Shown in pieces: positions 12,490-25,201 of a stretch of DNA of 33,591 nucleotides (position 1 is its first letter; the number at the start of each line of letters is the position of its first letter). Below the pieces are notes generated by a model, which saw only the letters and a list, made by a program, of their open reading frames with translations, was not told the DNA's origin and searched no databases. Both the position numbers and the translations under genes were made by a program. Source of the stretch: a virus (lineage: Duplodnaviria; Caudoviricetes); the IMG/VR virus record IMGVR_UViG_3300022867_000039, positions 1 to 33,591 of that record; one strand, given 5' to 3'.

Positions 12490-12663
12490 TCATAATCCCT
12501 TACATTATTACTAGTGATAATTTAAGATTATCAATAGTAATAATTAATGCTTTTATATTTCTTTCATATTGGCTAGGTTTTAACTTCGTATGTAATATTT
12601 GTAAATTTTATGTGTAAATTATAAATCATTCCTATATATATAAATACTTCTAGTCCATAATAC

Positions 12664-12711
12664 TGTGACATATTTATCACACTTAACTGTATTTGTGACA
12701 TATTTGTCACT
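12664..12711. repeat. Tandem pair of 18-bp palindromic sites, 30 bp apart
   Basis: TGTGACATATTTATCACA (12664-12681) and TGTGACATATTTGTCACT (12694-12711). Confidence 0.8.
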
Positions 12712-13138
12712 ATGGTTTACTCCAACTGATGGTTAATGGTTGATTCTTCTCTGAGTTAATGCTTAAAACCTCTGCACTTTTGCCGTATCTTTTAGCGTTT
12801 AGTTTACTTGCAGACCATTGAGAACTAGCAACGATTATTTTATATAAGTTAACCAAGTTTTGAGCTGCCTTTGGATCTAATTCTCCTGATTCTATTTTAA
12901 TTTCTAGTTCTTTTCTTTTGTCTTCCAGCTCTGAAAGTCTTAGATCAACTGCCAATTCCTTTGCTTTGATGTATCTATCCATTAAAATATTATCTTTAAT
13001 TAAATAGTTTCTAAAAGATTGCCATGTAAAATCTACATCATCTCTACTAAACACTTCTCTAATGGTTAAACCATCAGCAATAAGATTTAAAAGCTTATCA
13101 AATAGTTTTTCTGTTAATTTCTTTTTTCTTCCTGCCAT
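12710..13138 (-). CDS. terS: Terminase small subunit
   Basis: 142 aa; LIADGLTIRE HTH-like start and W.ASKL.AK.YG end as in Sf6/P22-like TerS; upstream of terL. Confidence 0.75.
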   Translation of the reverse strand: MAGRKKKLTEKLFDKLLNLIADGLTIREVFSRDDVDFTWQSFRNYLIKDNILMDRYIKAKELAVDLRLSELEDKRKELEIKIESGELDPKAAQNLVNLYKIIVASSQWSASKLNAKRYGKSAEVLSINSEKNQPLTISWSKP

Positions 13139-13181
13139 GTTAATTTCTTTACTTTAGTAAAGCCATAATAATATTTATAGG

Positions 13182-13275
13182 GTTACCGGTAGAGATAGAA
13201 AGGAAAGGGAAAACTCCACCGGCAACAGTTATATAACTAATAGACCAAAGCTTAAGGGAGCTAGTAGCCTAGAAT
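13182..13275 (-). ncRNA. Putative structured leader/sRNA with two hairpins bearing C/U-rich loops
   Basis: 13-bp stem GTTGCCGGTGGAG/CTCTACCGGTAAC (two G-U pairs, valid only on the minus strand) with loop TTTTCCCTTTCCTTTCTAT. Second stem TAGGCTA..AGCT-CCCTTA-AGCT.TGGTCTA. TATAAT at 13292-13287 just upstream. Confidence 0.55.
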
Positions 13276-13299
13276 TTACTTAACACATTATATGGTATA

Positions 13300-13581
13300 T
13301 TACAAATCAAAAGGCTTTTTTTTAGGCTTAAAACTTCTAGTTGTTAGTGTAATAGGATTTTTCTTTATTTTACCTTTAAAAAGTAAATCATCAATTATAG
13401 TTTGGCAGGTGTAACTACCGTATAATCCATCATTTATAATTAGATACATTTGCTCAAATGAAAGCATTCCATTTTCAAAGTCTGATTGAATGTATTTATT
13501 AATTTCAATCTTCTCTGCCAGGCTATAGCTATTATTATAACTCTTTTGTAATGGTTTATTATTATAAAGATACTCAGTCAT
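13300..13581 (-). CDS. Hypothetical protein, possible replication accessory
   Basis: 93 aa, coupled to the initiator gene; function inferred from position only. Confidence 0.6.
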   Translation of the reverse strand: MTEYLYNNKPLQKSYNNSYSLAEKIEINKYIQSDFENGMLSFEQMYLIINDGLYGSYTCQTIIDDLLFKGKIKKNPITLTTRSFKPKKKPFDL

Positions 13582-13987
13582 CCTTAAAGCCTTTTAACTT
13601 TTTAAATCCTTTATTATTATTGTTATTACTATTATTGTTATTACTCTTATAATGGTACCCAAATTTTACGTAGTCTGATTGCGTAGATTTTGGGTAGTCA
13701 GGGTACGTAGATTTTGGGTAGTCTCTAGGTAATTTCAAGGTATATCTGTTCGCACTTGATAACCTCTGTATAACTATATATCCAATATCTGAGAGCTCTT
13801 TTTTTGCCTTTTGAAGTGTATTTATTGAGATTCCAAGCTTAAGACATAAATTAGAGTTTCTAAGGTTCCTATAATTAGCCGATAAGCTTTTTATGTAACA
13901 AAATAAGACTTTAGCGTCATTTGATACCCTATTATCATAAAACAGAGCATTTGGGATCATAACAAACCCTTTTTTTAATTTATTCAT
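13574..13987 (-). CDS. Replication initiator-like winged-HTH protein
   Basis: F.MIPN...D..VS..AK.L...I...L...LGIS.NT..K..KEL...GYI pattern of phage replisome-organiser HTH domains; contains iteron-like repeats. Confidence 0.7.
   Translation of the reverse strand: MNKLKKGFVMIPNALFYDNRVSNDAKVLFCYIKSLSANYRNLRNSNLCLKLGISINTLQKAKKELSDIGYIVIQRLSSANRYTLKLPRDYPKSTYPDYPKSTQSDYVKFGYHYKSNNNNSNNNNNKGFKKLKGFKDD
13600..13723. other. Putative origin of replication: three 24-bp-spaced iterons plus an AT-rich tract
   Basis: CGTAGATTTTGGGTAGTC at 13682 and 13706, CCCAAATTTTACGTAGTC at 13658; adjacent (TTA/TTG)n tract at ~13611-13650. Confidence 0.7.
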
Positions 13988-14017
13988 ATTCCTTTATTTC
14001 CTTCCTTGCTAGACCTC

Positions 14018-14130: not shown

Positions 14131-14421
14131 ATGTTTAAAACAAATCAAACAAAGGAAAAAAACATGAGTAGTGTATATGACGACTTCGGCAATTTAAAAA
14201 ACAATTGCTTAACAGTTACACCAACAAGTGAACCGATAAATATTAGAGGTTCAAGAAGTGATTCCAACTGGTGCATTGAAGCAGTAGGACATGACTTAAA
14301 AAATAATATTAATTTTAATGCAAATTGTGTTTTCTGGACAAAAAAAGAGGCATTAAGTTTTTTAAAAACTGGTGTTCATAATTGTTCAGTTACTAAGCAA
14401 ACATTATATCAAATCAAATAA
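14131..14421 (+). CDS. Early hypothetical protein (true start possibly 14164)
   Basis: AAAGGAAA RBS precedes ATG at 14164 (MSSVYDDFG). Confidence 0.65.
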   Translation: MFKTNQTKEKNMSSVYDDFGNLKNNCLTVTPTSEPINIRGSRSDSNWCIEAVGHDLKNNINFNANCVFWTKKEALSFLKTGVHNCSVTKQTLYQIK

Positions 14422-14435
14422 AGGAAAGAAAAACA

Positions 14436-14876
14436 ATGATTACAACAAACAACGAAAGAAACATAATAGGCAATAAATATGAACAATTTAAAAGCATGGA
14501 TATTAAAGAAATAGCCAAATTTATAAGAAACGATTTAAAACAATTTAAAGATTGTAAATTTTCAGTATCTATTCAAAGATATTCTGGCGGTCGTTCAGTT
14601 CATGTTAAATTAATGAGTTCAACAAATTTAAAAAGATTTGTAAATATTAAATATGATAGTACGCAAGAAACAAGATTTAATTTTTCAAAAGATTTTAAGG
14701 AAAAAGTTGAATCTATTATAAATCAATATAATTATGATAAGTCAGATCCCATGACAGATTATTTTAACGTAAATTTTTATAGTCATTTTAATATTGATTA
14801 TAATTTTCAAAAATTAATTGAAGATAAAATTACAGATACAATTGACTCTGTAACTTATTTTACAAAAATTAATTAA
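14436..14876 (+). CDS. LPD29-like (large polyvalent protein-associated domain) early protein
   Basis: IAK.IR..LK...KFSV....YSGG.S ... YNYD.SD.MTDYF motif, recalled as LPD29. Confidence 0.6.
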   Translation: MITTNNERNIIGNKYEQFKSMDIKEIAKFIRNDLKQFKDCKFSVSIQRYSGGRSVHVKLMSSTNLKRFVNIKYDSTQETRFNFSKDFKEKVESIINQYNYDKSDPMTDYFNVNFYSHFNIDYNFQKLIEDKITDTIDSVTYFTKIN

Positions 14877-14881
14877 TAAAA

Positions 14882-14914
14882 CTTTAAAGGGTGCATTAAT
14901 TTGCACCTTTTAGA
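14882..14914 (+). terminator. 14-bp hairpin after the LPD29-like gene
   Basis: CTTTAAAGGGTGCA-TTAAT-TTGCACCTTTTAGAG followed by ATTTATTT. Confidence 0.6.
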
Positions 14915-14957
14915 GATTTATTTAATAATAGATCATAACCAATAGAAAGGGTAAAAC

Positions 14958-15239
14958 ATGACTACAATAAGCAACGATACAAAAGAAACTTTAATAAATA
15001 AAGCTTCTCAAATCTTAGCAAACAAAGAAATAGGTTTTTCAAATGAACAAATAGAAACTTTAAAAAAATCTTATGAAGATTTAAGAGGTAAAAAAATATC
15101 ATTTGAAAAAGGAACTGCTTTGTCAAAATTATTAGATAAACAGAATTTAACCAAAACACAATTAAAGCAATTAGTAGATGCAAAAATTCCTTTTGTATCT
15201 GGTTTGGCTTTAAATAAATTAATTAAGAAAGGAAAATAA
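14958..15239 (+). CDS. Early hypothetical protein
   Basis: 93 aa, GAAAGGG RBS, TAATG coupling to the next gene. Confidence 0.7.
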   Translation: MTTISNDTKETLINKASQILANKEIGFSNEQIETLKKSYEDLRGKKISFEKGTALSKLLDKQNLTKTQLKQLVDAKIPFVSGLALNKLIKKGK

Positions 15240-15430
15240 TGATAATATTAAAGAAAAATGGAGATTTTAAAGAAATGGGAGAGCCAAGAAAAGAAACTCA
15301 ATTTTGGTTATTCTTTGAAAAGGGAAAAGTACCAAAGTATGGTTTGGCAAGAACTGAATCGGCTTTAAAACAATTTAGGGATTTATTAACTTTTAATAAA
15401 TATAAACCAATCAATAATACAATTAACTAG
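15239..15430 (+). CDS. Early hypothetical protein
   Basis: 63 aa, GAAAGGAAA RBS. Confidence 0.6.
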   Translation: MIILKKNGDFKEMGEPRKETQFWLFFEKGKVPKYGLARTESALKQFRDLLTFNKYKPINNTIN

Positions 15431-15442
15431 AAAAAGGAATAT

Positions 15443-15550
15443 ATGAAAAAAGCAATATACTACGTTCTAGGGTTCGCATTTTCTGTAATGGTATTTGTAA
15501 CCTTAATAATGATGATGTTACACCAATGGGCAACTCATGGGGGAATCTAA
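15443..15550 (+). CDS. Small single-pass membrane peptide (35 aa)
   Basis: MKKAIYYVLGFAFSVMVFVTLIMMMLHQWATHGGI with AAAGGAA RBS. Confidence 0.6.
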   Translation: MKKAIYYVLGFAFSVMVFVTLIMMMLHQWATHGGI

Positions 15551-15553
15551 ATA

Positions 15554-15730
15554 ATGAAATATTATATTAAATATAAATATTGGAATACAAAAACAGACAA
15601 AATAGAAATTATTAAACATGAGTTTGAAAGGTCTTTTAATGATTTAAAGGATTTATTTGATTTCATAGATGATTTTAAATCTTCTAATTGTATTTATAGA
15701 GATCAAGTAATAAAAATTGATAAGATATAA
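15554..15730 (+). CDS. Small hypothetical protein (58 aa)
   Basis: Hand translation MKLYIKYKYWNTKTDK...; tiles the early operon. Confidence 0.55.
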   Translation: MKYYIKYKYWNTKTDKIEIIKHEFERSFNDLKDLFDFIDDFKSSNCIYRDQVIKIDKI

Positions 15731-15805
15731 ACATGAAAGCAATATTAAAAAAACTGTTTAAATTAATCAAAGAATGTTTAGGCATAGAAAGAGAAAGGGA
15801 TAATA

Positions 15806-15985
15806 ATGAAAATAATTAATAGAGGGTTAACTGTTGACATAGTAACCAATGAAATAGAAGTAATAGATAGAATGTTAATAATGTTTCATAAGGCTATGGA
15901 CAATGCAACCAATCCACAATTCAAAGAGCTCTGGAGTAAAAAATATGAAAAAGCAAAAGATTACAAAAACAAAAACACTTATTAA
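15806..15985 (+). CDS. Small hypothetical protein (59 aa)
   Basis: MKIINRGLTVDIV... with GAAAGGGA RBS. Confidence 0.55.
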   Translation: MKIINRGLTVDIVTNEIEVIDRMLIMFHKAMDNATNPQFKELWSKKYEKAKDYKNKNTY

Positions 15986-16115
15986 ATTAATGGAGGAAAC
16001 ATTGGTTAATGTTTTAATAGGTTCTGAAGCTATGAATGGGGTTACCTATAACAAGTATAAAAACTTTAAAAAGGAGGGGAAAAAATGCTTGAAGCAATCA
16101 TTATTATTGAATTAA
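15903..16115 (+). CDS. Small hypothetical protein (true start likely internal MKKQK)
   Basis: GGAG precedes the second Met. Confidence 0.5.
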   Translation: MQPIHNSKSSGVKNMKKQKITKTKTLIKLMEETLVNVLIGSEAMNGVTYNKYKNFKKEGKKCLKQSLLLN

Positions 16116-16148
16116 CATTAATAATATTTTACCACTTAACTAATTAAT

Positions 16149-16424
16149 ATGGATATTTCATTATTAAAAATAACAAAGATGAAAAAATTTGTTAAATGGA
16201 TGGAAGTAAGAAACGTTCATATAGGGTTATGGGATATATATAATCCTTTAGGTAAAATATATCAAGGTTTAGAACGTAGGCAAAAAATAGCAAGTGAAAG
16301 AGATAGCTTTGTAAGTAAAAGAAGGAAAACCAGAAAGAGTTGGTCAAATGCTTTTACAAGATATGGTCGATTAGAAAAAACTCTTGATGTTTATGGCTTT
16401 GTACTTAGGAGATTAAAAAAATAA
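16149..16424 (+). CDS. Hypothetical basic protein
   Basis: 91-aa ORF in the early operon. Confidence 0.55.
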   Translation: MDISLLKITKMKKFVKWMEVRNVHIGLWDIYNPLGKIYQGLERRQKIASERDSFVSKRRKTRKSWSNAFTRYGRLEKTLDVYGFVLRRLKK

Positions 16425-16439
16425 CCAAAAAGGATAAAA

Positions 16440-16646
16440 ATGAATAATATTAAAAATTGGAGTTTACTTAATAATAAGGATAAAAAATATTGGATTAATA
16501 TTTATTCTAAATTAAATAAAAACGATTTTATTCCAAAAGAATATATGAGACCATTGAAAGGTATTAAAAATCTTATAGATCATCAAATAAAAACAGGTAA
16601 AACATTATTTGAAAATGGAAATGGGATTACAAAAGATTTTTTTTAA
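16440..16646 (+). CDS. Hypothetical protein
   Basis: 68 aa, AAAGGA RBS. Confidence 0.6.
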   Translation: MNNIKNWSLLNNKDKKYWINIYSKLNKNDFIPKEYMRPLKGIKNLIDHQIKTGKTLFENGNGITKDFF

Positions 16647-16647
16647 T

Positions 16648-17412
16648 ATGAATAAAAGCTGTTCAGAATGTAAAAAAATAAAAGATGTTAAATATTTTTT
16701 TTGGAGAAAAGATACTCAAAATTATAGAGCAACCTGTAAAGAATGTTGCTTTAAAAGATCAAAGAAATATTACAAGAAACATAAAAAAAGTTTATTAATT
16801 TGGCATAAAGAATACCGTTTAGAAAATAGAGATAAAATTAATAAAGAACTAAAAGAACATTATTATAAAAATAATGGTGCTGAAAAAAGAAGGTTATGGA
16901 GAATTAAAAATCCATTAAAAGATAAAAAAACTGCCAAAAGATGGAGATTAAATAATCCTGAAAAACTTAAAGAAATACATAAAAAAAAATGGCAAAATAT
17001 TTTAAACAACCCTATATTACATAGGGAGATATTAGATAAGCAAAAGATAAGAAACTCAACTTTAAAAGCAAAATTAAAAAATAGAAAATCATGTAGAAAA
17101 CATTTTCTAGCAAATAGAGAGTATTATTTAAAAAAGAATAAAGATCATTATCTTGATAATAAATTATATTATAATTTAAAATCTATGCACAGAAGAAAGC
17201 ATATTTTAATTAGAATCCCTAAATGGGCTAATTTAGAAAAAATTAGAGAGATATATAAAAAGAGTAAAAAGGGTTATCATGTTGACCACATTATACCGCT
17301 TCAAGGTAAAAATGTTTCAGGACTCCATGTAGAAAATAATTTAAGAATTATAAAGGCTACAAGTAATTTAAGTAAAGGTAATAAATTTCCATACAATGGA
17401 ATATCAATATGA
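16648..17412 (+). CDS. HNH endonuclease with N-terminal CxxC...CxxC zinc finger (homing-endonuclease-like)
   Basis: CSEC...CKEC; C-terminal YHVDHIIPLQG..VSGLHVENNL....SNLSKGNK. The start at 16648 (MNKSC) is preferred over 16609. Confidence 0.85.
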   Translation: MNKSCSECKKIKDVKYFFWRKDTQNYRATCKECCFKRSKKYYKKHKKSLLIWHKEYRLENRDKINKELKEHYYKNNGAEKRRLWRIKNPLKDKKTAKRWRLNNPEKLKEIHKKKWQNILNNPILHREILDKQKIRNSTLKAKLKNRKSCRKHFLANREYYLKKNKDHYLDNKLYYNLKSMHRRKHILIRIPKWANLEKIREIYKKSKKGYHVDHIIPLQGKNVSGLHVENNLRIIKATSNLSKGNKFPYNGISI

Positions 17413-17591
17413 ATAAAACCAATATATATGGAGATTATAAGGTCTGTATAAAATGCAAGAATCCTTCAGATGTAGTAGAGGGATCAAAAAATTACTGCGT
17501 TGAATGTTGGTATGTTCATGTTAATGGTAAAAGCATAAAGGAAGTGGAAAAGCAAATAGAAGAAGAAGAAAGGTTTATTAAAAAAAAATGA
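17409..17591 (+). CDS. Small zinc-ribbon protein
   Basis: CIKC...CVEC. Confidence 0.65.
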   Translation: MNKTNIYGDYKVCIKCKNPSDVVEGSKNYCVECWYVHVNGKSIKEVEKQIEEEERFIKKK

Positions 17592-17707
17592 AATACTTAA
17601 TAATATTTATATTTCTATCAGGATGCTTTCTAAGCGATTACGATTTTAACCCCACAACTACGATATTAAAACAACTAATAAAAGGACAAAGTAATGAAAA
17701 AAAGTAG
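17588..17707 (+). CDS. Small putative lipoprotein (39 aa)
   Basis: MKYLIIFIFLSGC: short signal with LSGC lipobox; ATGA overlap with the upstream gene. Confidence 0.55.
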   Translation: MKYLIIFIFLSGCFLSDYDFNPTTTILKQLIKGQSNEKK

Positions 17708-18251
17708 TGCGTTAGCTTATGTAGGACACAATGCGAATGGAGATAGAGAAAAAGATGACTTTTACCCAACACCAGAAAATGCAACCCAATCATTATTAGA
17801 TAAGCAAAAATTTGAAGGTGATATTTGGGAGTGTGCTTGTGGTAATGGTGCTATGTCTAAAGTTATGATTAAAAATGGTTATGATGTTTATAGTTCAGAT
17901 TTAATTAATAGAGATTATGGAGAAATAGGAATTGATTTTTTAGAATCTGATAAACAAGTGGATAATATTGTAACCAATCCACCTTTTAAATTAGCAACAG
18001 AATTTACATTAAAGGGATTTGAGTTGGCTAGAAAAAAAGTTGTCATGCTTTCTAAAATTTCTTATTTAGAGGGTGTTAAAAGAAGGGAACTAATATTTAA
18101 TAAAGATAAACTAGAAAGAGTTTTAATATTTACTAGGAGAGTTCCATTTAAAAAAGAATCAACTCAAAAATTAGCAGGTGGTTTAATGGCATTTGGTTGG
18201 TTTATTTATGATGTTAATTATAACGGTAAACCTCAAATAGATTGGATATAA
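17694..18251 (+). CDS. DNA amino-methyltransferase (probably N6-adenine)
   Basis: DFYPTP, WECACGNG SAM-binding motif, catalytic IVTNPPF. Confidence 0.85.
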   Translation: MKKSSALAYVGHNANGDREKDDFYPTPENATQSLLDKQKFEGDIWECACGNGAMSKVMIKNGYDVYSSDLINRDYGEIGIDFLESDKQVDNIVTNPPFKLATEFTLKGFELARKKVVMLSKISYLEGVKRRELIFNKDKLERVLIFTRRVPFKKESTQKLAGGLMAFGWFIYDVNYNGKPQIDWI

Positions 18252-18253
18252 AA

Positions 18254-18748
18254 ATGATAAAAGTTAAATTAGATCCGTTTGAAGTGCAATTAGCCTTTGA
18301 GAACTCAACAAAAAGGTACATAGAGAACTTGAAGCAAGGTAAAGGGTTTTCTTATGGCTACACAGGTGGCTTTGAAAGACAAATAACAGATGGGGTTATT
18401 GGAAGCTTAGGAGAAGTAGCTTTTGCAAAGGCAACTAATACTTATTTCAATAGCTCTTATTCTGATTCTTTTTCAAGATATACAGATACCGATTTTCAGA
18501 ATCATATAGAGATTAGATCACAAAAAAAGAAAGATCCTAATTTTTTATTGATTAGACCTAATGAGAAAAAAGCAAGATATGTTTTAGTTGTCCATGATGG
18601 CGATTTTGAATTTAGTATTATGGGGTGGTTCTCTTATAAAGATGATGGGGAGGAGATGTCTAAAAGATTAACTGACTTTGGTTACTCAAATAGACCTCCA
18701 GCATATAGAGTTAATATTAATGAACTAAATAAAATGGAAGATTTATAA
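18254..18748 (+). CDS. Putative PD-(D/E)xK-like nuclease-fold protein
   Basis: G..GE.A...D....IEIRS arrangement; ATG 18254 is preferred over TTG 18242. Confidence 0.5.
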   Translation: MIKVKLDPFEVQLAFENSTKRYIENLKQGKGFSYGYTGGFERQITDGVIGSLGEVAFAKATNTYFNSSYSDSFSRYTDTDFQNHIEIRSQKKKDPNFLLIRPNEKKARYVLVVHDGDFEFSIMGWFSYKDDGEEMSKRLTDFGYSNRPPAYRVNINELNKMEDL

Positions 18749-19401
18749 TGAATGATAAAATAAATTTTAAATTATTTAAACCTTTTGGTTCAACCCTTGC
18801 TAAATCTGTATTACCTTTAGATTTAATCAAAGAATTTCAAGAGGATTTAAAACAGATAAGAGAAGATAAAGACAAGATTATAACCCATGATTGGGGGAAT
18901 CAATTAATTGGTCAAGTACATGGCGAATATTTAATAACACCTGAGTTAATGCTTAAATGGAAAGGATTATTTTTTGATCCTATTATTTCTGGTTATACTA
19001 GTAGCCATTATAAAGATAATAAAATAGAAAGCATAAAAATTACTTCAGCTTGGTATGTAGTTCAAAAACCAGGAGATTATAACCCTTGTCATACTCATGT
19101 AACTTATACCAATCAAGGTAAAGGTGCTGATCTAAGTTGTGTTGGTTACTTAAAAATACCTGATGCCATGAAACCAAATAAAAACTCTAAAGAACATGAC
19201 GACACTTCAGGGAATGTAGAATTTTTAGAAGGTTCGGAGAATATGTTTTTTGATGCAAATTATAAAGCCTTGCCAGAGGTTAGAGATTGGTATTTGTTTC
19301 CTTCAAATTTAAGACATACCGTTTATAAATTTGATTCGGATAATAAAGATGATGAAAGAATATCATTTAGCTTTAATGCGATAATAATATTTAAAGCTTA
19401 G
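18748..19401 (+). CDS. 2OG-Fe(II) oxygenase (TIGR02466-like)
   Basis: W......DYNP.HTH...LS.V.YL...LFPS.LRH.V...ERISFSFN. Confidence 0.8.
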   Translation: MNDKINFKLFKPFGSTLAKSVLPLDLIKEFQEDLKQIREDKDKIITHDWGNQLIGQVHGEYLITPELMLKWKGLFFDPIISGYTSSHYKDNKIESIKITSAWYVVQKPGDYNPCHTHVTYTNQGKGADLSCVGYLKIPDAMKPNKNSKEHDDTSGNVEFLEGSENMFFDANYKALPEVRDWYLFPSNLRHTVYKFDSDNKDDERISFSFNAIIIFKA

Positions 19402-19425
19402 AGGTGTATCAATATGTATTATTTA

Positions 19426-19454
19426 TTGACAACGTTTGTTTCAACAACTAAAAG
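19426..19454 (+). promoter_or_regulatory. Promoter of the recombination/regulator operon
   Basis: TTGACA-17 bp-TAAAAG in the 19402-19482 gap. Confidence 0.6.
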
Positions 19455-19482
19455 GTAAATAGACAATGAAAGGAAATAAATA

Positions 19483-19737
19483 ATGCTTAAAACAATAGGG
19501 AAAGAGTGGACAAAAAAGGAAGATGGGGGTTGTTTTACTGCCGATCATATGAGTCCAAGTCAGCTTAATAAAAGCTTAGACTTGTGGTTCAATGATTATG
19601 TTGTCTTAACAGCTCAACAAAGAAAATCATTACCAGGTAATCTAAATATGGATATTGGTGGCATAGTTGGTCAATCTGTTCAGGATATGATTGTTTATAA
19701 TTTAACACTTGAAGAAGTTATGAAAGGAAAAAAATAA
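19483..19737 (+). CDS. N-terminal module of a PD-(D/E)xK exonuclease (stand-alone)
   Basis: HMSPSQLN....W...Y.........M..G..V resembles the conserved start of PDDEXK_1/Cas4-like phage exonucleases; no catalytic motifs. Confidence 0.55.
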   Translation: MLKTIGKEWTKKEDGGCFTADHMSPSQLNKSLDLWFNDYVVLTAQQRKSLPGNLNMDIGGIVGQSVQDMIVYNLTLEEVMKGKK

Positions 19738-20033
19738 TGTCAGATCAGATAATGATGGAACTTGCAAAAATGCAAACCAAGATAAGAGCCTATGAACAAG
19801 ATAATAAAAAATATGCAGAACAGTTAAGAAATAGAGATGATGAAATAATTGAACTAAGAACTAAAATTAATTCATTAGAGTTAACGGATAAGAAGATAGC
19901 TCAAAATAAAAGTTATTTAGAGTTAAAAGCAAATAAGGATAAAGAACAAATAATAGAAAATCAAAAACTAAAGGAAGGAAATAAAAATGACAATAAAACA
20001 AAAAGTAGTTCAGGAAGAAAGTCCGACAAGTAA
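19737..20033 (+). CDS. Coiled-coil hypothetical protein
   Basis: 98 aa, heptad-like charged sequence. Confidence 0.65.
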   Translation: MSDQIMMELAKMQTKIRAYEQDNKKYAEQLRNRDDEIIELRTKINSLELTDKKIAQNKSYLELKANKDKEQIIENQKLKEGNKNDNKTKSSSGRKSDK

Positions 20034-20619
20034 AAATACTGAAGAAAAATTCAAAGGTTCTTTCAGGGAAAAAAGGTTACAATGTATAGCTTCACTAGAT
20101 TCTAATGTTGAAAAATTAGACTTTAAAGGAAAGAGTTATTTAACAGTAGCTAAAAGACATAATCACTTATTAAAATTTTTTCCAGAATCTAAGATAGATG
20201 AGCAGATTATTTTTCAAGATGATAAAAAAGTTATAGCTAAGACTACATTATATATTGGAGATACTCCTTATAGTGTTGGTCATGCAGAAGAAATAAGAGA
20301 TGCTAACTTTATTAATAAAACAAGTGCTTTAGAGAATGCTGCTACTTCAAGTTTAGGAAGGTGTTTAGCTTCATTTGGATTACATGGTACAGAATTTGCT
20401 AGTGCAGATGAATTAGTTAATGCTGTAATTAATCAAGGAGCAACTACAAAAAATTCAATTAAGGATAAGATAAAACAACAGACAACTGAAACTAAGTTGA
20501 CTAAGTTATATTCTGATTGGAAGAACGAAACTGAATCAGTTCAAAAAGAATTTGATTCTCAACAACAAACAATAAAAACTAATGGAGGACAAAACAATGC
20601 CAATAAGCAACAATGGTAA
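19987..20619 (+). CDS. Single-strand annealing recombinase (Rad52/Sak-like)
   Basis: KGK.Y..V..R ... GHAEE...INKTSALENA.TS.LGR.LA..G...EFASADE motif of phage SSAPs. Confidence 0.65.
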   Translation: MTIKQKVVQEESPTSKNTEEKFKGSFREKRLQCIASLDSNVEKLDFKGKSYLTVAKRHNHLLKFFPESKIDEQIIFQDDKKVIAKTTLYIGDTPYSVGHAEEIRDANFINKTSALENAATSSLGRCLASFGLHGTEFASADELVNAVINQGATTKNSIKDKIKQQTTETKLTKLYSDWKNETESVQKEFDSQQQTIKTNGGQNNANKQQW

Positions 20620-21010
20620 CAGTAAGCAAAAAGATTGGGTATTATTTCCATATAATGGAGCTGATGAAAGAGCAATTAAACTTGACTTCTCAGGAAACAT
20701 TATTTTAGATAATGGTCATAAAGGAACAATCTTGGGTGTTAAAGCTCAATCAAAAAATGGTAACACTAAGTTTGTTAAAGTGTTTGCACAAATAGGAGTT
20801 CTCTTTAAAGGGGATGACAAGTTTACTGGAGAAATGAATTATCCAGATGCTGGTGGAGAGAAAGGTTTGATTGGTTGGACTAATGATGAGGGTAATATTT
20901 TATCTGGTTATAAGAATGATCCTAGACCTAAACAAACTCAACAAACAACAACACCTATTGCAAGACCTCAAGCAGAGGTTAAGGTAGAAAGTAAAGAAAT
21001 TCCATTTTAA
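20582..21010 (+). CDS. Single-stranded DNA-binding protein-like
   Basis: Beta-rich core, Q/T/P linker, terminal EIPF SSB-type tail; follows the SSAP gene. Confidence 0.6.
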   Translation: MEDKTMPISNNGNSKQKDWVLFPYNGADERAIKLDFSGNIILDNGHKGTILGVKAQSKNGNTKFVKVFAQIGVLFKGDDKFTGEMNYPDAGGEKGLIGWTNDEGNILSGYKNDPRPKQTQQTTTPIARPQAEVKVESKEIPF

Positions 21011-21013
21011 TTA

Positions 21014-21217
21014 ATGGAGTTTATTTTTTTATTTATGTTTTTTGTAGATGGAACTATTGAAAAAGTATCAGTACCTTTTGGTAGTTCATCTATAAATTGC
21101 TTTAATAGATTAGAAAAAGTTGTAAAAATAGATTATCTACCAATAGGTGTTAGATATAAAGATAAACAAGTAGCAGCGTATTGGTGCAAAGACAAGGAAG
21201 GAAATTATGCCAGATAA
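21014..21217 (+). CDS. Hypothetical protein
   Basis: 67 aa, hydrophobic N-terminus, two Cys. Confidence 0.6.
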   Translation: MEFIFLFMFFVDGTIEKVSVPFGSSSINCFNRLEKVVKIDYLPIGVRYKDKQVAAYWCKDKEGNYAR

Positions 21218-21512
21218 TGTAAAGTTTATAAATGATATGGAAAAGTTACTACATGAAAAAGAAGGGGATTACGGACAGTTTGACCATACGTCTTATGTAA
21301 TGGCTGGAATGATGGAGAAGTATTTATCAATTCATAATAACAAAACAATTAAAGTTCCATTAAAATTCTTTGGTTTATTTATGATCTTTCTTAAATGTTG
21401 GAGAGTAATGCAATCAAGTAATTATAAAAAGGATAGCTTTGATGACATCAACGGATATACAGAACTTTTAAGGAGGTTAGTAGTAAATGAAAATAAAACA
21501 AAGAGGACTTAG
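21207..21512 (+). CDS. DUF6378-like helical protein
   Basis: K..DYG.F ... M..LK..R......K.DS..DI.GY pattern. Confidence 0.6.
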   Translation: MPDNVKFINDMEKLLHEKEGDYGQFDHTSYVMAGMMEKYLSIHNNKTIKVPLKFFGLFMIFLKCWRVMQSSNYKKDSFDDINGYTELLRRLVVNENKTKRT

Positions 21513-21723
21513 ACCAATGACTCCAAAAATGTTGAAGCTATTGCAATTTATTAGAAACTATAGTACAAAATATGGATATATGCCAACTTTTTTAGAAATG
21601 GCTGCAGAGATGGAATATAAAAGTAAAAATTCGGTTAGTGTTCTGATTGATAAGCTTGAAGAACGCAACGAATTAAAAAGAGATTATGCTGGTTATAGCA
21701 GAAATGTTGTCTTAAATGTTTAA
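21487..21723 (+). CDS. LexA-like DNA-binding domain protein, no peptidase domain
   Basis: MTP....LL.FI.......GY.PTF.EM...M..KSK.SV..LI..LEER..L.R aligns by eye with alphaproteobacterial LexA N-terminal domains. Confidence 0.8.
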   Translation: MKIKQRGLRPMTPKMLKLLQFIRNYSTKYGYMPTFLEMAAEMEYKSKNSVSVLIDKLEERNELKRDYAGYSRNVVLNV

Positions 21724-21970
21724 AGTTTTAAAGACATCTATTGTAGAGTTTTCAGCTGATGTAGAAGAATTTTTTGATGGTGAAACAATTGAAGAAGCGA
21801 CCAAAAAAGCACACTATCAATCAATGCCTGGTGAACTTGCTAAAATTAATATTACCGACTGCAAGGTTATCAAGGAAGCTATAAAAATAGTTGGTAAGGA
21901 GCAACATGGATCCAAAAAAAGTATTGGAACTGAAAGTTCGGCAACAGGAGGAGAGCAGAAAAATGTTTAA
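21716..21970 (+). CDS. Hypothetical protein
   Basis: 84-aa ORF overlapping both neighbours. Confidence 0.6.
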   Translation: MFKVLKTSIVEFSADVEEFFDGETIEEATKKAHYQSMPGELAKINITDCKVIKEAIKIVGKEQHGSKKSIGTESSATGGEQKNV

Positions 21971-22070
21971 ATTTCAAGCTCTAGTCCAAAAGAAGAAAAA
22001 CTTAATTGCTGACATAAGTTCTAAAATTTTTGAAGAAGAAATGAAAAGACCATTTAGAATAAGTTCTTAA
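21906..22070 (+). CDS. Small coiled-coil protein (54 aa)
   Basis: MDPKKVLELKVRQQEESRK... preceded by AAGGAG. Confidence 0.6.
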   Translation: MDPKKVLELKVRQQEESRKMFKFQALVQKKKNLIADISSKIFEEEMKRPFRISS

Positions 22071-22147
22071 GGGTTTTTTTGTTTTAAACTGAAAGTTGTA
22101 TAAGCTTATTGGGTATTTTATACTCAAAATAAAAGGAAGGAAAACAA

Positions 22148-22438
22148 ATGATACAAGAAAAAGAAAATCCGTTTAAGAAAGATATGGAGTTCTATAGAGG
22201 AATAGGAATCAAAATCAAAGAAGCTAGACATACCAATATTAATCAATTTACTGGAAAGTGTTTTTTGATAACTCAAACAAAAGTTGCAAAGGCATTAGGA
22301 ACTACCTTTCAACAAATTCAAAAATATGAAAAAGCACATAATCGTATTCCTTTAATTTCATTAATTAAGATAGGAAATTACCTAAAGAAACCTTTAAGTT
22401 ATTTTGGGGTAGAGTCTTACAGAGAGGATAAAGAATAA
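22148..22438 (+). CDS. XRE-family HTH transcriptional regulator
   Basis: TQ..VA.ALG.TFQQIQKYEK..NRI motif typical of alphaproteobacterial XRE proteins. Confidence 0.85.
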   Translation: MIQEKENPFKKDMEFYRGIGIKIKEARHTNINQFTGKCFLITQTKVAKALGTTFQQIQKYEKAHNRIPLISLIKIGNYLKKPLSYFGVESYREDKE

Positions 22439-23079
22439 TGTTTGTACCGGTAAAAGATAAGCTAGATAAATTAGTTGCCTTAACACCTGCTGACCAAGAA
22501 AAATTAAGTTATTATAAAAGTATAGTTCCTTTAATGATTTCTAATTGTCATAAGGCTCACCAAACTATTCCTGGTTATGATAAGTGTAAACCAGAGGTAG
22601 AAGCTTTTAAATGGTTTGATGGTATTAATATTCCTATTCATGGTTACATAGATTTAAAAGGAGATAATCTTATCATTGAAGATAAATGTAAGATGCCTAG
22701 AAGGGGAATTGTCAAAAAAGATGGTACTAGATCTTGGTTTCCTGGAAAGCTACCAGTTGATAAACCTTCTCCATATAACTTATTACAAGTTGATTTCTAT
22801 TGGTCTGTATTTCAAGTACCAGTTTATCTTTGTTATGTTAATGAGGTAGAATTTAAAGTCTTTCATGCTGGAAATTGTGATGAACTAAAGCCTGAGAATA
22901 TTAAAAAAAGAATACCTACAATTATTCAAAGAGCTAAAGTTAGACAAAACATAATGAAGATTAGTAATGATCCTAATGTTCTTAAAGATTATATTCAACC
23001 AGACTTTACACATATGTTTTGGAATAATGATGCTGATGAAAATTATCTTAAAAATGCTAAGAGGTTTTGGGGATATTAG
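22438..23079 (+). CDS. PD-(D/E)xK exonuclease catalytic module
   Basis: E...IPIHGYIDL....IIEDK...Q...Y motifs; lacks the usual N-terminal SxS/G..H segment. Confidence 0.75.
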   Translation: MFVPVKDKLDKLVALTPADQEKLSYYKSIVPLMISNCHKAHQTIPGYDKCKPEVEAFKWFDGINIPIHGYIDLKGDNLIIEDKCKMPRRGIVKKDGTRSWFPGKLPVDKPSPYNLLQVDFYWSVFQVPVYLCYVNEVEFKVFHAGNCDELKPENIKKRIPTIIQRAKVRQNIMKISNDPNVLKDYIQPDFTHMFWNNDADENYLKNAKRFWGY

Positions 23080-24394: not shown

Positions 24395-24609
24395 TAAGGA
24401 TAAGATAGTATTTCTTTTGCTTCTTTCTTTAATTCTTTTATTTTTTTATTAGCTTCCTCTAAATCAGTAGTGGCATTTTCTAATTTTTGCAGACACCTTT
24501 TATTTGCAGAGTCTTTAGACTTACCTGCGTCTTGGAGTTCGGCAATATCTTGCTTTAAGATTCTTACCTGTTCCTTATATTCATTAAGTATCTCTGTATT
24601 ATCTGACAT
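24394..24609 (-). CDS. Coiled-coil hypothetical protein
   Basis: 71 aa heptad pattern. Confidence 0.65.
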   Translation of the reverse strand: MSDNTEILNEYKEQVRILKQDIAELQDAGKSKDSANKRCLQKLENATTDLEEANKKIKELKKEAKEILSYP

Positions 24610-25201
24610 CTATTTTTTTTTTAATGTTTAAATAGTATTTTTTTAAAGATATGGATATTTTATTTTTAGTACTTAAAGAAAGTGGTTTTCTTTTTATTGG
24701 ATCTCTATTTTTTGCGAAGAACGACAATTTATCTCTCATTTGTTTAGTCCAAACTCTTGTTTTATTACTTAAAGATAAGTCTGGTCTTTTCCTACCTAAG
24801 TTTAAAATTCTAATTTTTTCTTTGGTTTCATCAGTATGTTTTCTACCTTTAAAATATAATGATATTTTTTTCTTATGTTCTTCTGTAAGTTTTCTACCTT
24901 TTACTCCACCTCCATCTAAACCATTTTCATGAATAAGATTTGCAAACTTATTACTATTAACAACATCATAAAAATGTGACCAATAAAGTGCTTTTTTGGA
25001 AAAGTTTTTTTTACTTGTTCCTTTATAAAGTATTTTTGTTTTAATATTATTACCATGTACTTTTAAATGTCTTTTCCAATATTTACCAGAACCTTTATAC
25101 TTAAAAGGCGTATATCTTATATTATCTGATCTTTCTGTAAATTTACAAAGATAATTTAAATTGGTTATGTTATGAGTTTTAATTAATAAATAATATTGCA
25201 T
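24599..25201 (-). mobile_element. Free-standing GIY-YIG/Seg-like homing endonuclease with NUMOD3 repeats
   Basis: Degenerate YYL...YLC, Y.GSG..W...L..HG core; GRKLTEEHKKKIS and KGRKHTDETKEKI NUMOD3 motifs. Confidence 0.75.

Follow-up and report, generated by a model that had tools for sequence, protein, structure and literature searches.

The window analyzed here, that is, the whole 33.6-kb virus record (30% G+C), belongs to an HTVC106P-type pelagiphage. Its nearest named relative is Pelagibacter phage HTVC106P, to which the DNA is 69% identical across the locus described below; identity amounts to 80% for the capsid and 88% for TerL. The minus strand carries the structural genes and the plus strand a block of small genes (14131-23079), and the labels "late" and "early" are used throughout as inferred from strand and gene content. 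The element under study lies on the minus strand, between a 93-amino-acid (aa) open reading frame (ORF) and terS and ~0.8 kb downstream of a replication-initiator-like gene (rep). In the direction of the minus strand, the features of the locus are as follows.

13574..13987, minus strand: replication-initiator-like helix-turn-helix (HTH) gene, candidate target (phrog_186/4221/270, PF13730)
13300..13581, minus strand: 93-aa ORF, function unassigned, directly upstream of the element (homologue of HTVC106P gp69)
13300..13305, minus strand: -35-like hexamer TTGTAA, putative promoter part by its sequence, 17 nt before the probable -10
13283..13298, minus strand: single NrdR-type palindromic box in the promoter spacer, a predicted site
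13277..13285, minus strand: probable extended -10, TG-n-TAAGTA in the window, with the -10 proper at 13277-13282
13241..13271, minus strand: hairpin P1 (from folding), with loop CCCUUA at 13253-13258
13227..13238, minus strand: linker of the two hairpins, a perfect 12-nt palindrome (AGUUAUAUAACU) through which two RNA molecules are predicted to dimerize
13182..13226, minus strand: hairpin P2 (from folding and relatives), with a 13-bp stem and a 19-nt pyrimidine loop (13195-13213) ending in UCCUUUCU
13149..13166, minus strand: 5-codon upstream ORF between P2 and terS (from the sequence)
12710..13138, minus strand: terS, encoding the small terminase subunit and opening the structural operon (phrog_1482, PF20901)

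The terS gene of the window is not preceded by a Shine-Dalgarno sequence. The 5-codon ORF in front of it (13149-13166, minus strand) arose by a short duplication and is found in a minority of relatives (also in L004, L012, L181, L189, L199, and L203). Two palindromes of the type TGTGAC-N6-(A/G)TCAC(A) are located just after terS (12663-12710), and similar TGTTG...CAACA motifs are present in the control regions of phages HTVC010P and HTVC203P. Inside rep (13610-13730), GTAGATTTTGGGTAGTC occurs twice together with ATTATT/GTTATT runs, repeats that resemble an iteron-bearing origin such as that within a lambdoid O gene. The window furthermore contains a homing-endonuclease-like gene among its lysis genes (24599-25201, minus strand), its early block includes a gene resembling endonuclease VII (16609-17412, plus strand), and HTVC106P gp06 (L156:1427-1552) is annotated as alternative ribosome-rescue factor A.

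A preliminary description of this DNA had proposed two minus-strand hairpins with the loops listed above, and both are present. The minus strand of the element has a minimum free energy of -30.2 kcal/mol with a z score of -5.5 (0 of 200 shuffles), compared with a z score of -0.8 for the plus strand, and there is no second such hairpin in the 33.6-kb window. The corresponding element of HTVC106P is found at 36018-36120, likewise on the minus strand. Two scans for TerS returned 80 loci each, mostly overlapping, at TerS identities of 64 to 99%; a scan of genome contigs yielded a single locus. Among the 156 records with a TerS match, those with an upstream anchor gave 73 distinct leaders, short or anchorless loci (e.g., L007, L069, and L075) being left out. 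P2 precedes terS in all 73 leaders, with 12 to 18 pairs, 21 different stem starts, and loops of 13 to 26 nt that are 94% pyrimidine. Every P2 loop contains CCUUUC and none contains CCUCC; the leaders were parsed with CCUUUC constrained to be unpaired, and unconstrained folds of a subset of leaders resulted in the same hairpin. The element's own strand folds more stably than the opposite strand in 66 of the 73 leaders. A P1 hairpin enclosing CC(C)U was observed in 72 leaders, the exception being L039, a natural P1 deletion (L039:1966-2094) in which the palindrome and P2 are intact.

As to the covariance analysis suggested in that description, the stems were found to covary across relatives and the loops to be conserved. 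When 16 of the leaders were put into a plain alignment with MAFFT, the P2 stem had 98.4% of its cells paired, with 25 double changes; none of 500 shuffles scored as high, and slid controls reached 22 to 53%. RNAalifold returned the same P2 stem, with compensatory changes in 5 of 10 pairs, and in L003, at a TerS identity of 99%, the P2 stem differs by double changes. Scanning for the motif without reference to TerS produced 76 matches, of which 72 were at the same locus and 4 were unrelated. We consider it nearly certain that a conserved two-hairpin structure heads the structural operon of HTVC106P-type pelagiphages. An Rfam search, which had also been suggested, provided no family that matches the element, either in the window (E of at most 5) or at six other loci (E of at most 1). 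Two other candidates were discarded: a plus-strand ribosome-binding site (RBS) as the cause of the purine run, since no start codon follows, and a phi29 pRNA-like role, since the phage has a TerS protein.

In 72 of the 73 leaders, the two hairpins are joined by a linker that forms a perfect palindrome of 10 nt or more, represented by 13 different sequences; the background frequency of such palindromes is 1.9% in genome windows and 4% in shuffles. The linker is complementary to itself across its centre, and its length shifts by 2 nt between phages that are 99% identical in TerS (L001 versus L003). Because of these two properties, the linker would fit RNA-RNA pairing better than a hairpin or an operator. 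In cofolding, the dimer keeps both hairpins intact, with a gain of -10.6 to -16.7 kcal/mol in all 14 representatives, and, as P2 adjoins the palindrome in most leaders, the dimer may form a stacked rod with one loop per end. Neither this linker nor the NrdR-type box is part of the preliminary description. That the palindrome instead binds a dimeric protein and marks a site at the DNA level (a packaging start, origin, or operator) appears highly improbable: the location between the replication-initiator-like gene and terS and the other operator-like palindromes nearby would agree with such a site, but the conserved G-U pairs function on one strand only, and an operator would rarely tolerate the 2-nt change in length.

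The start of the element had been placed just after a TATAAT sequence (13287-13292). Promoter-like elements do lie upstream of P1, but this TATAAT is located within the NrdR-type box and occurs in only 6 of 59 leaders; it was rejected as the -10 in favor of TG-n-TA, which directly follows the box in 59 of 59 box-bearing leaders. At the register of this probable -10, TATAAT is found in 9 of the 59. Because TG-n-TA follows the box, transcription is predicted to start near 13271, at P1. T19, A20, and A21 of the -35-like hexamer are invariant in the alignment, a conservation that is confounded with coding because the hexamer shares bases with the stop codon that ends the 93-aa ORF.

The palindromic box was identified by its resemblance to the NrdR consensus and is present in 59 of the 73 leaders, allowing at most 4 mismatches to that consensus; the 14 leaders without it belong mostly to one clade. 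Near-identical boxes precede the ribonucleotide reductase genes in five small genomes of 30% G+C (G002-G007). An nrdR gene is present in four of these five genomes and in G134, a SAR11-like genome (1.2 Mb, 29.8% G+C) that served as a host proxy and is not the demonstrated host. The NrdR-type boxes of the bacterial genomes compared are paired, 30 bp apart, and bacterial NrdR sites are described as two tandem boxes ~31-32 bp apart (PMC2892513). Tandem boxes were not found near the element in the window or in HTVC106P, where the box is single. In HTVC010P-type phages, an NrdR-type box immediately precedes the first late gene's start codon (L245:705-725, L250-L323), and a very conserved motif, GGGACTCGAGGACTCCCTTA, lies upstream of it. 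In 19 of the 73 leaders, including that of HTVC106P (L081:930-955), the interval from P2 to the start of terS contains another palindrome, of the TTAGAA-N3-TTCTAA type and presumably Irr/ICE-like by its consensus; it is also present in the control regions of HTVC010P (L245:34800-34830) and HTVC203P (L248:34700-34800) and is absent from the window. It is possible that this palindrome serves iron sensing or acts as a roadblock that ends the RNA.

P2 does not resemble an intrinsic terminator, given its loops of 13 to 26 nt and the lack of a U-tract behind it (0/73 leaders), and the terminator scan did not list it. Because no U-tract follows P2, the RNA would be the terS leader or a fragment cut from that leader. 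The element might act in cis on transcription, for which HK022 put-like and nut-like elements are a model, its hairpins binding RNA polymerase, Rho, or a phage protein to aid read-through of the ~24-kb operon. It begins where transcription of the structural operon is predicted to start, it has no terminator, its position is fixed within the group (72 of the 76 motif matches are syntenic and 4 unrelated), and its C/U-rich open loops resemble a Rho-loading sequence. We regard this explanation as unlikely; it leaves unexplained the palindrome that is self-complementary through its centre, as well as two observations described below, namely, the avoidance of the loop complement by late RBSs and the presence of the same loop at another locus in HTVC010P-type phages.

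The end of the P2 loop, UCCUUUCU, is identical to the final 8 nt of the 16S rRNA tail, which ends in CCUCCUUUCU in 12 of 12 genomes read and in G134. As the loop core is the 16S tail, any strong Shine-Dalgarno sequence will match the loop. Five matches to RBS regions of the window (at 14420, 14942, 15226, 19468, and 19722) had been noted at the outset, and all were found at those places. The predicted target RBS is of the type AGAAAGG(A/G)AA, or AGAAAGGAAA-type, and the predicted targets in the window include the following.

13997..14006, minus strand: rep RBS (AGGAAGGAAA), predicted target, -7.3 kcal/mol (-11.6 in HTVC106P, second best)
14420..14428, plus strand: RBS of ORF 14436, predicted target, 9 bp, -8.7 kcal/mol
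14942..14951, plus strand: RBS of ORF 14958, predicted target, 10 bp, -8.6 kcal/mol
15226..15235, plus strand: RBS of ORF 15239, predicted target with the best score, 10 bp, -10.7 kcal/mol
15793..15800, plus strand: RBS of ORF 15806, predicted target of the GGG type, pairing in the CCC register of the loop, 8 bp, -10.5 kcal/mol
19468..19476, plus strand: RBS of ORF 19483, predicted target, -5.9 kcal/mol
19722..19730, plus strand: RBS of ORF 19737, predicted target, 9 bp, -7.2 kcal/mol
19972..19981, plus strand: RBS of ORF 19987, predicted target beyond the five first noted, 10 bp with one G-U pair, -9.7 kcal/mol
21195..21204, plus strand: RBS of ORF 21207, predicted target beyond the five first noted, -9.1 kcal/mol
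22134..22143, plus strand: RBS of the HTH regulator ORF 22148 (PF01381), predicted target beyond the five first noted, -9.1 kcal/mol

The RBS types differ largely between the two gene classes. In the window, GAAAGG or AAGGAA is present in 10 of 26 non-late RBSs and in 0 of 32 late RBSs (p = 1e-4). GGAGA was seen in the five late genes for which it had been reported, but as a mark of the late class it does not hold, because it occurs in only 5 of the 32 late-strand genes; GGAG is found in 7 of the 32. The solid contrast is the avoidance of GAAAGG/AAGGAA by late genes, rather than their use of GGAGA. A similar split was observed in HTVC106P (7/25 non-late versus 0/45 late). Across 24 loci, in which homologous sites are not independent and starts are first-ATG calls, GAAAGG was found in 48 of 245 distinct early upstream regions versus 0 of 112 late ones, and GGAGA in 9 early and 27 late regions. 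Ranking early against late RBSs by predicted pairing, as had been recommended, led to the same separation: an accessibility-corrected energy of -5 kcal/mol or better was reached in the window by 12 of the 26 non-late RBSs and by none of the 32 late ones (p = 0.0016), and in HTVC106P by 10 of 25 and 4 of 45, respectively (p = 0.006). The sparing of late genes is incomplete, in that the RBS of terS itself has GAAAGG in 16 of the 73 leaders.

The evidence for covariation between the loop and its putative targets is mixed overall. Within the HTVC106P group, GAAAGGG and GAAAGGA sites occur at 13:11 with CCC-register loops and at 7:62 with other loops, counts that are phylogenetically non-independent; a cruder loop/target split within the group was weak (9/25 versus 30/160). 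In one clade, the P1 loop tracks the rep RBS (AACCCUUU/AAAGGGUU; 9 nt in L059). The length of the perfect match of P2 to the cognate rep RBS was no better than in permutations (p = 0.12). The duplex energies of cognate loop-rep pairs did beat permutations (0/5,000), the sequences being related, and the rep RBS ranks high both in the window and in HTVC106P. These two results, along with the matching terS RBS in 16 of 73 leaders, could point to a local controller of one or two genes, either the replication initiator 0.8 kb upstream or terS downstream. This seems very improbable to us. A matching terS RBS is missing in 57 of the 73 leaders, and where it exists it mostly lies 3 to 6 nt from a 12-bp stem, probably too close for a pseudoknot; several clades (L043, L055, and L066) pair poorly with their own rep RBS. 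A pseudoknot in cis between the loop and the terS RBS was likewise dismissed, the spacer presumably being too short.

Similar hairpins were found in HTVC010P-type phages, which are described as the second most abundant pelagiphage group (PMC12753301). HTVC203P shows the same RBS split, with 9 of 22 non-late versus 0 of 40 late RBSs. A strict hairpin scan retrieved nothing in HTVC010P or HTVC203P, whereas a looser scan detected hairpins in both, so HTVC203P was dropped as a counterexample that would have the split without the element. The hairpin of HTVC203P has a 12-bp stem and a UUCCCUUUC loop, and that of HTVC010P is a nested version; a model built from the window's family picks the HTVC203P hairpin with an E value of 0.014. 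The location is as follows.

L245:28197-28311, minus strand; L248:6798-6879; L432-L436 (further isolates): HTVC010P-type anti-RBS hairpin, after the SSB-position gene

This site follows the gene after the Erf-like recombinase, and all seven close isolates of the HTVC010P type have a similar stem and loop behind the SSB-position gene. CCUUUC is found at this locus in 80 of 80 contigs, with changing inner stems, and 79 of the 80 have a CCCU-type motif behind the hairpin, like the P1 loop. These copies are mostly without the palindrome and are part of the recombination operon, outside the late operon and its promoter. Since they sit at a different locus, the loop motif is not tied to terS, and the same loop before unrelated genes would favor action in trans. 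Six HTVC010P-type isolates have CCC-type loops, yet their RBSs are GAAAGGA and GAAAGGG at 23:6, which speaks against a fine covariation of loop and target. The region before HTVC010P gp01 (52 distinct leaders) contains a conserved motif and no P2-like hairpin. A comparable hairpin is missing from HTVC028P, HTVC111P, the initial 36 kb of the 61-kb HTVC023P, and Venkman, each with 0 to 1 GAAAGG RBSs, in a comparison of two lineages with the hairpin and four pelagiphage/methylophage records without it.

In about one-third of the proxy genome G134, GAAAGG was present in only 2 of 375 RBS regions and AGGAG was the enriched motif. Considering this GAAAGG/AGGAG pattern in the phages and in G134, late genes use a host-like RBS and early genes an unusual type that fits the loop. 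A broad action on host mRNAs, which had been raised as a possibility, is unsupported in the proxy, where an energy of -5 kcal/mol or better is reached at 14 of 372 RBSs. Among the six top-ranking matches, three are genes for ribosomal proteins S16 and L7/L12 and for EF-Tu. A point against a trans-acting RNA is that only one of the five small genomes searched gave a match for Hfq, and G134 gave none. No comparable hairpin below -14 kcal/mol was contained in 400 kb of G134. We judge it quite unlikely that the RNA is directed at the host, blocking a few mRNAs with strong outer-tail RBSs or drawing away, as a decoy, a factor that recognizes the 3' end of the 16S rRNA. The identity of the loop end with the 16S tail and the three translation genes among the best matches would be in accordance with this, as would the ribosome-poor infected SAR11 cells reported for other pelagiphages (PMC11066056). 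However, the proxy genes that pair are few, G134 being a proxy, and a decoy of the tail should retain CCUCC, which 0 of 73 loops do.

We consider it moderately probable that the element acts in trans as an RNA, its open loop pairing with RBSs of early and replication genes of the phage itself and preventing translation of these genes. The conserved unpaired loop complementary to RBSs that is expected of an anti-Shine-Dalgarno small RNA was found. Of the early-to-late switch first proposed for this DNA, the covarying stems, the conserved loops, and the predicted pairing with non-late genes only are borne out; a broad action on the host is not supported in the proxy. The promoter with the NrdR-type box in its spacer would start the RNA at P1, the 5' end of the terS transcript, and the RNA may be released by cutting in the AU-rich stretch behind P2. 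P2 keeps the pyrimidine loop open, as its covariation shows. Two copies are predicted to pair via the palindrome, with both P2 stems stacking on the duplex, and the resulting rod, with a loop at each end, could grip two RBSs simultaneously. In sequence, the loop reproduces the outer part of the 16S tail, UCCUUUCU, and never the CCUCC core; this complementarity is observed, and by prediction 8 to 10 bp would form with early-type sites and repress them, whereas structural and host genes, with sites of the GGAG type, would offer ~6 bp. As an outcome, ribosomes would shift to the structural mRNAs and replication initiation would be braked, although the predicted targets cover only 12 of the 26 non-late genes.

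The question addressed is how small SAR11 podoviruses, which count among the most abundant viruses known and have no RNA polymerase of their own, order their gene expression. A wider proposal, which we put forward tentatively and hold to be doubtful as a whole, is that two major pelagiphage groups use two Shine-Dalgarno types and an RNA that reads only the early type and that, in the HTVC106P group, this RNA is self-dimerizing and two-headed, with an NrdR-gated promoter that lets the cellular dNTP status set off the translational change from replication to packaging. If this were true, the host nucleotide sensor NrdR would time a translational switch. Cultured phage-host pairs exist for both groups, HTVC106P with HTCC7211 and HTVC010P with HTCC1062, which makes the proposal testable. 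The published pelagiphage transcriptome that was found is described as covering HTVC022P and HTVC027P, which are other than the HTVC106P group.

RsaE/RoxS, RNAIII, and 6C are host small RNAs with C-rich loops, whose open pyrimidine loops pair with RBSs at the GGAG core. The phage loop differs in that it matches the outer 16S tail and the phage's own RBS type. P1 c4 and P22 sar are phage antisense RNAs that regulate by base pairing. They have one or few specific targets, whereas the loop described here is predicted to fit about half of a gene class by RBS type; the same difference applies to lambda PreS/LPR1, described as a phage small RNA and base-pairing regulator (10.1101/2024.10.31.621285). 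The alphaproteobacterial cuckoo family of small RNAs, or RSs0680 (CcsR), is reported to have CCUCCUCCC in all loops and shares with the element adjacent hairpins, here two, with variable compensating stems and conserved anti-Shine-Dalgarno-like loops (PMC4615179). Membership in this family failed at the motif, as CCUCC is present in 0 of 73 P2 loops; the P1 loops are of CC(C)U types, so that the two loops differ, and the element has a palindromic linker, is phage encoded, and has no Rfam match. A catalogue of structured RNAs from IMG/VR contains unnamed candidates tied to Pelagibacterales phages (85 mentions; PMC10690425), and the element may already stand among them. As far as their descriptions go, by which alone they were compared, no function of this kind is proposed for them. 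The available part of the HTVC106P preprint (10.1101/2019.12.14.876532) makes no mention of a noncoding or small RNA or of a promoter. A literature search that covered few subscription papers retrieved neither a description of the element nor a regulatory RNA that dimerizes via a covarying palindrome to show two anti-RBS loops. T4 RegB is a protein endonuclease that cuts at GGAG and separates early from later mRNAs by their Shine-Dalgarno sequences. Here, an RNA would spare GGAG; by sorting mRNAs according to their RBS type, one RNA would provide a protein-free early-to-late switch, the RNA counterpart of T4 RegB.
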